Shown here one piece after another: positions 55 through 8,130 of a stretch of 30,562 bases of DNA. Numbering within the stretch: the stretch's first letter is position 1; the number at the start of each line of letters is the position of its first letter. Position numbers and translations under genes: made by a program. The stretch comes from a virus (Duplodnaviria > Heunggongvirae > Uroviricota > Caudoviricetes), in the IMG/VR virus record IMGVR_UViG_2703718870_000021; one strand, 5' to 3'. The notes under the pieces are model-generated. The model was not told the origin of the DNA. It did no database searches and saw nothing but the letters and a program-made list of their open reading frames with translations.

Positions 55-639
55 TTACTCCCTGACAGGGTTCGTAGGCCACTCAATATCAGGTGCAGTT
101 GATGTATCAACACGGTTCAGCAACACCCGATACTTTTTCCAGGCTTCCAGCAATGAGGTTTCTTCCTCCGTTGCGATTTCCAGATCCACAGCATCCTGAA
201 GTGGCGCAATATGCTCACTGGCTACCTGCATCAGGCTGTTTTTTGTTTCTTCCGCCTCTCGGATCCGGAACAGTTTTTCTGCTTCTGCATCTTTCACCCA
301 GGCTGTGCCGTTCCACTTCTGAAACTCCCCTTCCGGCGATAACCAGGTAACATTTTCCGGTAACGGACCGAGTTCAGAAATAAATAACGCGTCCCCTGAC
401 GCTACGTCATAAACCGTTTTACCCCGATGGTCTTCAACGAGATGCCACGATGCCTCATCACTGTTGAAAACAGCCACGAAGCCTGCCGGAATATCTGGCG
501 GTGCAATATCGGTACTGTTTGCTGGCAGACCTGTATGAGGCGGAATATATGCATCACCTTCACCAATAAATTCATTAGTTCCGGCCAGCAGATTATAAAT
601 TTTTATGGTCCGTGGTTGTTCACTCATTCTGAATGCCAT
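55..639 (-). CDS. tfa: tail fibre assembly protein Tfa
   Basis: 194-aa ORF beginning [24 protein letters not shown], recognised as near-identical to lambda Tfa; ATG overlaps the stf stop (ATGA). Confidence 0.9.
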
Positions 640-3600
640 TATGCAAGCCTCACAATGTAGTTAAATGCGATGTTTTTGACGGTGTTTTCCGCGTTACCAG
701 CAGCGTTAACGGTGATGGTGTGTCCATGTGAGCCAATCGCAACCGAGTGCGTATGAGCACCAATACCGACAGTATGTGCGTGTGCACCTGCGCTTGCAGC
801 AGTGCCGGACAGTGAGTGGGTATGTGCGCCAGCAGATGATGTTGCATAGTTTTGATTATGCACAACAGACAATCTTGTCGATGCACTACCAGCACCGGAG
901 TTAGCACTAGCCGTGTTCACGTTGGCTAGTGAGTGTGTGTGTGCTCCAGCCGAGTTTGTAGAGCCGCTCACACTGTGTGTATGTGCCCCGGTGTTATTCG
1001 TGGATTTAGTGCCGTAATCAAACGACGATGTGGTTTTCGTCCCCAAATCCGTACTGGATGCGCTGGCGCTGTGGGTGTGCGATTTAATGCCGTCCTGTTC
1101 CTGAGATAATACGGCCCGACCACTGGCAGGTTTGCCCTTAATCGTCCAGCCACGCATATCAGGGATCACGCCTGACGGATAAGCGGCTGCAAGTTTCGGG
1201 TAAGCAGATTTGTCAAAAGTCTGCCCCTGCATCAGGGCATAGCCAGACGGAACGGTATCTGATGGCCACGGGATTGGTGCGCCGACTGGGTAGCTTTCTG
1301 GCGGAAGATTTTTCGAGGTATAAACTTCTGCCCAGTCTTCCTCAAAACCATAACCGTCTCTTGAAGAACGGTAGAACAGACCACCATTTCTGTAATGCGC
1401 CTTCATCTGCAAAGTCCGGCAACTTCCGACTCCGGTATAGAAGTTAACCAGAATATAGCTGTCGCCAGAGCGGGTGACATTGTAAGCGCCTGATTCGGCA
1501 TTCCAGGGAACGCCCCCATCCGCATCGGCATACGTATCCGTTGCTCTTCTGGCAAAAGCAGCAACATGCGCAGCGGTTAAAGTGATATCAGTAGAACCAT
1601 CAAACGAAACACCAGATATTTTTATTGCTGTCTGAAGTTTCGTAGCTGTATCAGAATTTCCCTTAATCCCCTTAGGCGAATTAAGTGGTGTATTGATCGT
1701 CACTTCACCTGTTGCGTTATTTACAGCAAATGGTCGAAGACCGTTCCAGCCACCGTACTGGTCGCCTTTATCAGTCATGAGCAAGTAAGTGTTTGCTCCA
1801 TCATTTCGCCATATGACACCGTAATCGCCTGCAATCATCCTTAACGCGTTCTGACTACGGACAATAACTTCATCATTAGCGTAAATCTTATTCCCGCTAA
1901 TATCTGACTTACTCAAAACGGGATACGAACTATAAAATCCATTACCTTGTTTAAAATCTAAAATTAAATTTACAGCAACTGATTCAGAATAAGGATCAGT
2001 TGCGCCAAATTTATAAGTTGTTTCAGCAACAACATAATCAGAAGCAGGTGCAGTAACGGAGAGTCCTTCTTCTAAAAAAGCCTCTACGGGAAATGCCCCA
2101 CCTTCTATATAGAATACGCTGTCTACGGTATCGCCTTTATTACTCATCAGAATGGAATGAATAGCGCGTTCCGATGATGAATAAGCCCAGAACATACCAC
2201 AGGCATAGCTACTCCGGTCCGTCCAGCCGCCTGCGCAAACAAAACCATTAAACTCACAGTTATTCATTCTGTGATTAGCTGTGCGACTTGGCGTTGAAAT
2301 GACAACGCGGGATGCCCGATGGCTGTCATTCCTTTTTATCACTAACGGATAATATTTACCTTCCTGGACACCCGCCGGGGCATTTACCACAACGTATCGC
2401 ATCCCCTTTTTCTGATCCACTTCACCTTTGCTGTAAACATTGATGTTACTCAGGAAGCGGCCCTTGTCGGGAATATCAGCACCGTTCTGGTCTTTCTGCA
2501 GACGTTTCTCTGCATTGTCATAGGCTGCTTTTACTGCCTTTGGCGTTGCCGCCAGCGTTTCAGACGTGCTGTTGGTCGCACTGCTGAGCTGTACTATCCC
2601 CTTTTTCGTCGTGCTCGCATCCTCAAGCGCCACGGCGGATGCAATATCCTCTGCCCGTTTTGCTGCTGTCTCGGCGCGCGTTGCCGCGGATTCCGCCGTA
2701 CTTTTGCTCTGAGCTGCCGCCGTCGCACTGCCAGCTGCCTCTGTCGCCTTCGTGGATGCCGTCGTGGCGCTGCCCTTCGCTGCTGACGCCTGTCTGGTCG
2801 CCTCATCTTTTGAAGCAGACGCCGATGATGCCGATGACGCCGCCGAACTGGCTGACGATGCGGCAGCCGTTTTTGAGGATTCTGCGCTGGTTTCCGACGC
2901 TTTCGCGTTCGTTTCGGATGTCTTCGCTGCGGAAGCTGACCTCGCTGCTGCCGTGGCCTGTTCAGTGGCTTCGCCAGCCTTCGTTGTGGCTGTTGAAGCG
3001 GATGATGCGGCGCTTTCTGCCGACTTTCCGGCAGCGGTGGCACTGGCTGAGGCCTGCCCGGCATTTGTTGACGCGGCGCTGGCAGATGAGGCAGCCGCTG
3101 TTTTTGAGTCTGCTGCTGCGGAGGCACTCTGTGCTGCTGCCGTCTCAGAAGACTTAGCGTTCGTCCCGGACGTTTTTGCCGCCTTCGCGGAATTTCCTGC
3201 CGCCGTAGCCGAGGAAGCTGCACTACTGGCGCTTGATGATGCGTTCGTTTCTGATGATTTTGCCGCCTCTTTTGAAGCCGACGCATCCCTGGCTGAGGTG
3301 GCAGCTTCTGACGCTTTCGTGGTCGCGGTGGATGCAGAAGTGGCGGCTGATTGTTGTGACGCTGCCGCATTCGTTTCTGACGTTTTCGCCGCACCGGCAC
3401 TGGTAGCCGCCGCGCTTTTTGAGGACTCTGCAGCGGCAGCACTTTTTGATGCTTCAGTGGCCTTTGCTGATGCCGTTCCTGCGCTGGAAGACGCTGACTG
3501 AGCCGACGACGCGGCCTGTCCGGCTGACGTGCTGGCTGCGCGTGCTGAGCCTGCAGCATCAGTCGCATGGGTTGCCGCCTCACGGGCTGATGTGCTGGCA

Positions 3601-3998
3601 TCGCTGGCTGACTTCTTCGCGGCTGCTGTGTTCTGTGCCACCGCGGACGCGTTACGCGCCACCTCTTCCACCATCAGTTCAAAACGTCTCAGTGCCTCCG
3701 GACGGGCATCATCCTCCGTCATGGCACCGAGAAAATCATTCAGCGTACCGGGTTGAGAATCTTCATACACGGTGATGGTCCCGGCATGTGACGGCGGGAA
3801 TCCCTCCACCAACAGAATAACGCTGTACTGACCGTACTCAACGTCCATACTGTAACGCCCGGCTTCATCCGGATTTTCTGAGGCCAGCGTGTTCACCACC
3901 ACCGTGTTGCTGTTACGTTTTGCTTTCAGTTGGATTGTGCAGTTCTGTACCGGTTTTCCTGTGCCGTCTTTCAGTACACCTGAAATCTTTACTGCCAT
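639..3998 (-). CDS. stf: side tail fibre protein Stf, long (about 1119 aa) form with Ala/Ser/Thr-rich central repeats and His-x-His C-terminal repeats
   Basis: N-terminus [26 protein letters not shown] matches lambda Stf; the ORF track starts 2 codons upstream at a GTG (4004), I place the start at the ATG at 3998; C-terminus ...[18 protein letters not shown] is lambda-like. Confidence 0.9.
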
Positions 3999-4009
3999 AT
4001 TCACCCCAC

Positions 4010-4036
4010 AAAAAAGCCCGCCTGAACCGGCGGGCT
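4010..4036 (-). terminator. intrinsic terminator downstream of lom
   Basis: on the minus strand an 8-bp stem (agcccgcc/ggcgggct) is followed by UUUUUU (plus-strand A-run 4010-4015). Confidence 0.55.
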
Positions 4037-4062
4037 GTCATAACACTGTGTTACCTGGCTAA

Positions 4063-4662
4063 TCAGAATTTATAACCGACACCCACGATGAAACCGTCAG
4101 TGCGCCAGTCACCACTGCCGGAGCCTTCATAAGCAATATCAATGGCCACGGATTCGGTCGGGTTAAACTGCACGCCAGCCCCCCACGCCAGAGACGTGTT
4201 GCTGTGGCGACCGTCATCACTTCCGGTCAGCACATCGTGCTTTTTCCCCTTGTTGTCAGTTACGCGGATATAATCTCCGGAGAAAGTCGAAACACGGCTG
4301 TAAGCCATACCCGCCATCGCATACGCGCTGAACCATTCATTCACGCGCACAGACGGCCCCGCCATCACGCTGAACCAGCGGTTACGCACGGAATCTTCAT
4401 GCCAGCGGGTATCGCTGTAACGGGTAAGCTGGCGATTCTTGTCTCCTGCATAGCTGAATGACGTCACCAGCCCCAGTGTGTCCGTAAACTCATAACGGTA
4501 TTTCACGTTAATCCCGTTAAGATCATCGCTGCCGGGAACGTTCGTCCGGGCATGAAGATACCCCGCGCTCAGCGTGGACTGATGTTCAGACGCCCATGCA
4601 GGCGCACCGGATACGGCCAGACAAATGGCTGCGGACAAAATGGCGGCATAAAGTTTACGCAT
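4063..4662 (-). CDS. lom: Lom outer-membrane protein (Ail/Lom family)
   Basis: 199-aa ORF with signal peptide [24 protein letters not shown] and C-terminal aromatic ...GVGYKF; ATG at 4662 preceded by GAGAGGT. Confidence 0.9.
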
Positions 4663-4686: not shown

Positions 4687-4710
4687 AAAAAAGGCGTCAT
4701 TTCTGACGCC
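4687..4710 (-). terminator. intrinsic terminator downstream of J (tJ-like)
   Basis: minus strand stem GGCGUCA / UGACGCC with 4-nt loop followed by U6 (plus-strand A-run 4687-4692). Confidence 0.55.
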
Positions 4711-4728
4711 CGTTCTGGGTTATAAAAT

Positions 4729-8130
<3,402 letters not shown>

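Follow-up and report, generated by a model that had tools for sequence, protein, structure and literature searches.

The window, a 30,562-nt stretch of DNA from a tailed virus (IMG/VR record IMGVR_UViG_2703718870_000021), carries the following features in the region studied.

55..639, minus strand: tfa, tail fibre assembly chaperone, 194 aa (Pfam Caudo_TAP, E = 3e-45)
639..3998, minus strand: stf, side tail fibre gene, a 3360-nt CDS of 1119 aa plus stop
642..1298, minus strand: T4 gp37-type collar and needle receptor-binding tip, aa 901-1119 (phmmer against 2XGF, E = 6.6e-88)
720..1079, minus strand: seven His-x-His motifs, aa 974-1093 (motif list and alignment with gp37)
1299..2438, minus strand: distal shaft modules, T4 gp34-like and Mu gpS/S'-like, aa 521-900 (Pfam and PDB matches)
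2439..2603, minus strand: conserved junction, Mu gpS-like, running from a ten-residue string to TPKAVK, aa 466-520 (PDB matches and lambda alignment)
2604..3695, minus strand: heptad-repeat (xxAxxSA) coiled-coil rod of about 51 heptads, aa 102-465 (period-7 signal and homology)
2775..3089, minus strand: 15 heptads (105 aa) shared with StfR and missing from lambda Stf as a single in-register gap, aa 304-408
3696..3998, minus strand: N-terminal tail-attachment (collar) domain and linker, aa 1-101 (PF08400; limits after Ur-lambda, PMC12617516)
4015..4036, minus strand: terminator-like hairpin between lom and stf, with an 8-pair stem (7 G-C) followed by a T run

The stf reading frame is intact and encodes 1119 aa counted from the ATG in the ORF list; with translation from an alternative GTG at 4004, further upstream, the product would be 1121 aa long. 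The 3360-nt CDS is annotated likewise in RefSeq, at an identical locus, and the corresponding protein, WP_072149431.1, is 100% identical. The start of tfa and the stop of stf share 1 nt, and Tfa shows 95% identity both to lambda Tfa and to TfaR. The gene order J - lom - stf - tfa, as read from the ORFs, Pfam matches and RefSeq annotation, is that of a lambdoid tail module, and together with the Pfam domains of the stf product (phage_tail_N, Gp34_trimer, Collar and Phage_fiber) it bears out the original prediction that the gene encodes the side tail fibre.

The protein has close relatives of nearly the same length. The tail fibre of phage Turner (PP925837) is also 1119 aa long and is 99.4% identical, with 96-100% identity in every module, and the phage 2H10 homologue has 1117 aa. 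Both the order of the modules and the 51-heptad rod are common to Turner and to StfR of the K-12 Rac prophage (b1372), which has 1120 aa; the overall identity of StfR, 87.9%, conceals a shaft cassette (aa 521-811) that is only about 60% identical, with flanks at 94-100%. The gene had been described as enlarged, which is true relative to lambda, but a fibre of the StfR type normally has 1119-1120 aa. By homology, the product very probably belongs to the Rac-StfR allele type of lambdoid side tail fibre and would be a homotrimer built of modules. This Stf is thus already known, being present in RefSeq, of the K-12 StfR type and near-identical to its counterpart in the isolated phage Turner. The gene is an ordinary, catalogued one from a lambda-like prophage of E. 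coli, and nothing new is required to account for it. All Stf domains have solved or modelled homologues.

The predicted lengths of about 1119 aa here and 774 aa for intact lambda Stf proved exact, a difference of 345 aa. The Stf of Ur-lambda shares with the present protein the N-terminal collar domain, the heptad rod, the junction of the ten-residue string and KAVK, the gp37-like tip and the adjacent Tfa, and its stf DNA shows 87% identity over the first 302 codons. An alignment of the window, lambda and 2H10 sequences reveals that the rod is collinear with that of lambda except for one indel, the lambda rod being 15 heptads (105 aa) shorter. Homology to lambda Stf then stops at the junction, just past KAVK, and picks up again at the collar, near residue 529 of lambda Stf. 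In between, the distal shaft of lambda differs as a module and is 268 aa shorter than the Mu-gpS/T4-gp34-like shaft found here. Conversely, lambda has the longer tip, by 28 aa; it contains eight HxH motifs and another distal subdomain. The 345 extra residues are therefore the sum of +105 (rod), +268 (shaft) and -28 (tip). The repeat block supplies only 105 of the 345 residues, and a different, larger shaft module supplies 268. This clean decomposition of the size gap into 15 heptads, a swapped shaft and a loss of 28 tip residues is the useful outcome of the comparison. Residues R393 and S528 of lambda Stf have served as fusion points for engineered chimeric lambda fibres (PMC11338833); they sit near natural module borders seen in this Stf.

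The N-terminal region is covered by PF08400 over aa 1-134 (E = 4e-71), and aa 1-94 match the lambda Stf chain in the cryo-EM entry 9e7m (E = 2.5e-51). The rod that follows contains the block rich in Ala, Ser and Thr (aa 118-450, DNA about 2650-3650), which had been predicted as a low-complexity repeat block. Its composition (38% Ala, 24% Ser, 12% Thr, with Pro, Cys, Trp and Tyr missing) and its location agree with that prediction, but no repeat array is found in the DNA. Tandem Repeats Finder, run on 500-4200, returned no tandem array and only a 25-nt trifle, and the 21-nt units of the block are only about 45% identical in DNA; the repeat therefore exists at the level of the protein, as a heptad.

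These data bear directly on the proposal that the repeat expands and contracts. In its strongest form, the block would be a hypervariable contingency locus whose copy number shifts by slipped-strand mispairing or frequent unequal crossover. Variation in length does exist: the rod spacer takes 8 distinct lengths among 27 diverse family representatives, 23 of which are offset from the present rod by whole heptads (0, -15, -16, -29, -31 or -32), and the anchor spacings of 134, 141, 155, 246, 253 and 358 aa are all mutually in register. Among close homologues, however, 116 of 120 have the same rod spacing and one is shorter by 4 heptads. Of 5426 complete E. coli genomes, 3589 contain a rod segment of this length. 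A sample spread across these genomes yielded 48 full-length matches of 89-100% identity, of which 46 lack any net indel and two differ, by -1 and -3 nt. The rod is thus not a hypervariable repeat. Comparison of close alleles shows that whole modules change, not the number of repeats. The DNA of the rod, with no tandem array and degenerate units, is too degenerate for slippage, and the 15-heptad lambda/window indel was searched for flanking DNA microhomology with no convincing result. A contingency locus is accordingly very unlikely and largely refuted. What stands of the proposed expansion and contraction is that rod length varies by whole heptads between distant relatives and is fixed among close ones. 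The literature yielded nothing specific on an earlier description of such length classes. It is a small, tidy observation, which could guide the engineering of fibre length.

The composition of the block could also be read as that of an intrinsically disordered, low-complexity flexible linker forming no structured rod. In line with this, Ala, Ser and Thr make up 75% of the block, aromatic residues are missing, and the block is masked by the BLAST low-complexity filter, which is why BLAST coverage reaches only 70%. The regularity of the sequence argues strongly against it. In the residue autocorrelation, every multiple of 7 up to a lag of 56 gives a peak, with z of 7-10 against shuffles, and no other lag does; Fourier peaks of the rod lie at periods 7 and 3.5. 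When the heptads are stacked, Ala occupies unit position 3 in 47 of 49, and the register runs without a break across about 350 aa. The indels among family members, as described above, come in heptad quanta. In an AF2 monomer model of aa 92-519 the block is almost entirely helical; the helix bends back on itself, a fold-back artefact also known from the prediction of full-length lambda Stf (PMC12617516), and the model was taken for secondary structure only. The homologous region of lambda Stf, residues 102-393, is described as the proximal coiled coil in Ur-lambda; its published model, a trimeric coiled coil, combines cryo-EM/cryo-ET density with AlphaFold3 predictions of separate segments (PMC12617516). 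A disordered linker is therefore extremely improbable. The Ala/Ser/Thr block is a structured heptad rod, neither disordered nor a tandem repeat of DNA.

The prediction that codon restriction keeps two alternative frames open for 750-1000 nt was confirmed, with 1008 nt (335 codons) at 2594-3601 on the minus strand and 750 nt (249 codons) at 2752-3501 on the plus strand. C stands at codon position 2 in 233 of the 343 codons of the block, which explains the lack of stops in the +1 frame. Frames of this length might be taken for overlapping genes, but when the codons of the block are shuffled, stop-free stretches still average 893 nt (minus frame) and 704 nt (plus frame), and in a control region of stf no open stretch exceeds 261 nt; the frames are thus a by-product of composition, and overlapping genes, hardly conceivable on these figures, were rejected.

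Distal to the heptad rod, the junction and shaft resemble isolated modules of other phages. PDB matches to Mu gpS (5YVQ and 8JU3) cover aa 441-522, Pfam Gp34_trimer covers aa 655-758, and further PDB matches link aa 701-790 to T4 gp34 (4UXE, 5NXF) and aa 812-906 to Mu S/S'. Only these shaft modules are held in common with Mu gpS/S' and T4 gp34, and stf has no invertible segment. A BLAST comparison of the shaft with itself, meant to reveal duplicated internal domains, gave zero matches. An AF2 monomer model of aa 476-905, built on a 15-sequence alignment, reached a pLDDT of 40.5 and was judged unusable.

The tip is 99.5% identical to that of StfR and 100% identical to that of Turner. It carries the Pfam Collar domain PF07484 at aa 906-953 and shows 70.4% identity over 216 aa to T4 gp37 (2XGF), with the same collar and needle and an identical C-terminal string of 13 residues. 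The repeated HxH motifs at the C-terminus and the gtg-rich strings on the plus strand were found as predicted: seven motifs begin at aa 974, 1006, 1020, 1059, 1073, 1082 and 1091, and GTGYGTRTG-type strings lie at 747-986. The further suggestion that they represent the metal-binding motif of T4 gp37 is borne out by the alignment, in which all seven match the seven of gp37 column for column. The T4 needle holds seven coordinated iron atoms in octahedral geometry, with six His per site (PMC6957217).

The resemblance to T4 has limits. The host phage and the remainder of the fibre are unrelated, and the chaperone is a lambda-type Tfa here and gp38 in T4. In place of tip subdomain 932-959 of T4, which makes the LPS/OmpC contacts, the present tip has a sequence unrelated to it. 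The critical residues of the T4 tip are I933, N937, G938, G940, G942, G943, K945, S947, Y949, I951 and Y953 (PMC6957217), and the HMMER alignment shows that only 2 of these 11 receptor-contact residues are kept. Since the distal subdomain is not conserved, the OmpC/LPS specificity of T4 and lambda is not transferable. Judged by alignment, the T4 gp37 fold family applies to the tip and its specificity does not. A literature search gave nothing specific on the receptor of the StfR-type tip.

Taken together, these homologies suggest how the fibre may work. The N-terminal residues 1-101 would anchor it to the tail tip. Residues 102-465 would form a long, thin, parallel coiled-coil rod with a core built from small residues (Ala at positions 3 and 7 of the unit, Ser at position 6); with geometry taken from homologues, its length is estimated at 54 nm, about 15.5 nm beyond the lambda rod. 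The junction and beta-rich shaft modules common to Mu gpS and T4 gp34 would follow at aa 466-900. In the tip (aa 901-1119), seven HxH motifs per chain would create seven octahedral six-His sites along the trimer axis for a metal, probably iron as in homologues. The short distal subdomain (about aa 1023-1050) would touch the host surface, and the downstream Tfa presumably acts as a folding chaperone of the tip. The Stf of Ur-lambda is a trimer, present as four fibres per virion, that speeds adsorption (PMC12617516), and by homology the same may apply here. Such a fibre would provide fast reversible adsorption ahead of receptor binding by J.

The whole-heptad length classes could, on a tentative and rather doubtful reading, represent a selected "reach" trait. 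If so, the form with 51 heptads, which two thirds of the complete E. coli genomes carry, would allow the tip to reach across a thicker O-antigen or capsule than the 36-heptad rod of lambda does, and the gain or loss of heptads would tune adsorption independently of receptor specificity.

The prophage with this stf adjoins ompT/envY/nfrA. Its position differs from that of StfR, which lies at the Rac site and is followed by the invertase gene pinR; in the present prophage, a methyltransferase gene follows the stf-tfa region.

Judged by its sequence, the side tail fibre of the window (Stf) is a member of the lambda Stf/Rac StfR family with a tip of the T4 gp37 type, and it shows every testable feature that defines this family. 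The protein is already known: public databases contain it and an isolated phage carries it; its interest is low. Mild novelty lies only in the quantisation of rod length in whole heptads across the family, of which no description was found in the searchable literature. The original prediction, an enlarged fibre with a repeat block and His-x-His repeats, was accurate in every element it described; its interpretation is supported in part, for the binding of metal but not for an actively variable repeat, nor for enlargement beyond the comparison with lambda. The gene and its neighbours are as follows.

55-639, downstream of stf: tail fibre assembly gene (tfa), 194 aa
639-3998, minus strand: stf, intact open reading frame, 1119 aa counted from ATG
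4036-4015, minus strand: strong terminator-like hairpin between lom and stf
4063-4662, same strand as stf, upstream: lom
4729-8127, same strand as stf, upstream: J, 1132 aa

The start of tfa and the stop of stf share one base. A second strong terminator-like hairpin is located just after J (4692-4711, minus strand), and lom is bracketed by the two, that at 4015-4036 lying just before stf. With hairpins at both ends of lom, late-operon transcription would have to read through (antitermination) for stf to be expressed. Several STEC genomes carry the 3360-nt coding sequence at 100% identity, under the annotation 'phage tail protein' (WP_072149431.1), in a prophage that adjoins ompT, envY, and nfrA. 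The region downstream of tfa was compared beyond the left end of the window (loci L002 11999-13029, L004 7033-7623, and L006 5085-5675). Rac, phage Turner, and phage 2H10 have a DNA invertase gene of the pinR type 3' of tfa, where the window's prophage has a gene for a SAM-dependent methyltransferase and a second, fragmentary tfa.

The predicted Ala/Ser/Thr-rich block is present at aa 118-450 (Ala 38%, Ser 24%, Thr 12%, with zero Pro, Cys, Trp, and Tyr) and is a very regular heptad repeat at the protein level. From aa 111 to about 460, the residues stack in rows of seven that read x-x-A-x-x-S-A, with no register shift; position 3 is Ala in 47 of the 49 units, position 6 is Ser in 36, and position 7 is Ala in 34. 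Residue identity peaks only at lags of 7, 14, 21 ... 56 (z of 7-10 vs. shuffles), the Fourier peaks are at 7, 3.5, and 2.33, and the offsets of all DNA self-matches are multiples of 21 nt. A tandem repeat at the DNA level was rejected, since Tandem Repeats Finder detected no array in the block and its 21-nt units share only about 45% identity. The two alternative frames reported as open indeed run for 1008 and 750 nt. They are no signal, because C occupies the second position in 233 of 343 block codons and codon shuffling reproduces the same two open frames (on average 893 and 704 nt without a stop); no stop-free run in a control stretch of stf exceeds 261 nt. AF2, run on the single sequence, predicts helix nearly everywhere in aa 92-519 (mean pLDDT 70.3, with 54 of the 428 residues under 50); the model doubles back on itself, as expected of a monomer. 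For Ur-lambda Stf, AlphaFold3 segment predictions fitted to cryo-EM/cryo-ET data gave a model in which residues 102-393 form the proximal, trimeric coiled coil of the side fibre (PMC12617516). By homology with this segment, the block is the rod of the fibre.

Intact lambda Stf has 774 aa, and the window protein is 345 aa longer, in agreement with the prediction. Against StfR-type fibres, the term 'enlarged' does not hold: StfR of the Rac prophage in E. coli K-12 MG1655 has 1120 aa and the same architecture, the fibre of phage 2H10 has 1117 aa, and that of phage Turner has 1119 aa, with 96-100% identity to the window protein in every module. Segment lengths were measured between three conserved anchors, among them GAPIPWPSD.

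Segment lengths of Stf in the window and in lambda
Rod: window 358 aa, lambda 253 aa, difference +105
Middle shaft: window 440 aa, lambda 172 aa, difference +268
Tip: window 214 aa, lambda 242 aa, difference -28

The rod excess is exactly 15 heptads, in one in-register gap (window aa 304-408, DNA 2775-3089). At the sequence level, the middle shaft is related to Mu gpS/S' (5YVQ, 8JU3) and T4 gp34 (4UXE, 5NXF), and it contains Pfam Gp34_trimer. Homology to lambda stops just after the conserved KAVK junction and restarts near lambda residue 529, at the collar. Engineered chimeric lambda fibres were fused at R393 and S528 (PMC11338833), two lambda Stf residues that lie near these natural module borders.

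Repeat expansion or contraction had been proposed as a source of variation. Among 27 diverse representatives keeping both anchors, the rod spacer takes eight values (105, 134, 141, 150, 155, 246, 253, and 358 aa) and differs from that of the window by whole heptads in 23; five of the seven other length classes are in register with the window, for which chance is roughly 1 in 1000 at 1 in 7 per class. Therefore, the heptad number changed during the history of the family. Close relatives, however, represent a standard-length allele without such variation: the rod spacing is unchanged in 116 of the 120 closest homologues, and 46 of 48 full-length matches (a spread sample from complete genomes, 89-100% identity) have no net indel. 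The rod is not an actively variable repeat.

The C-terminal His-x-His repeats proved to be seven HxH motifs at aa 974-1093 (DNA 720-1079). Against the chain in the crystal structure of the T4 gp37 tip (2XGF), the last 219 aa score E=6.6e-88, with 70.4% identity over 216 aligned residues, and all seven HxH motifs of gp37 align with those of the window protein; lambda Stf has eight. In gp37, three copies of each His pair coordinate one iron, giving seven irons along the needle (PMC6957217). Given this coordination and the close homology of the tip, the predicted metal binding is well supported. The short distal tip subdomain of gp37 (932-959), which holds the LPS and OmpC contacts (PMC6957217), is replaced by unrelated sequence with 2 of 11 critical residues identical, so that the receptor is not inferable from T4. 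The K-12 StfR tip is the same as that of the window (99.5%).

Sequence features apart, the mechanism of the fibre is drawn here from its homologues. Three Stf chains would anchor at the tail tip through the N-terminal domain, and the heptad rod, estimated at about 54 nm (0.148 nm per residue) and about 15.5 nm longer than that of lambda, would keep the parts beyond it at a distance from the tail. Through the shaft modules and the metal-stapled needle, the distal subdomain may be brought to the cell surface, and Tfa, 95% identical to lambda Tfa, probably chaperones the folding of the tip. Before J binds, the fibre would let the phage adsorb rapidly and reversibly, as was shown for the Ur-lambda side fibre (PMC12617516).

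Of 5426 complete E. coli genomes, 3589 contain a rod segment of exactly the window's length (at least 80% coverage); the complete gene occurs in 140 genomes, owing to module swaps in the distal half. Compared with K-12 StfR, aa 521-811 are only about 60% identical and the flanks 94-100%; this shaft cassette (within window 1299-2438) seems to have been swapped cleanly inside the gene, with sharp borders. In a group of close relatives (proteins P0001-P0043, about 89% identical over the first 519 aa), the shaft begins 44 residues later and Pfam PF03406 is also present; both would follow from an additional unit close to the KAVK junction. Several StfR-type fibre fragments (e.g., P0008, P0019, P0028, and P0033) bear the NCBI name 'short-chain fatty acid transporter, partial', which looks like a propagated misannotation. 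The match of 'Campylobacter phage CJLB-4' (MW057783.1, 48,361 nt) has the identity of the phage lambda match and nearly its query coordinates; the record may contain a lambda genome with Campylobacter entered as its host. The K-12-like Rac stfR of E. coli BS-04 (L001 6001-9362) consists of several pseudogene fragments, its frame being disrupted many times after codon about 557, which could be an assembly error or real decay.
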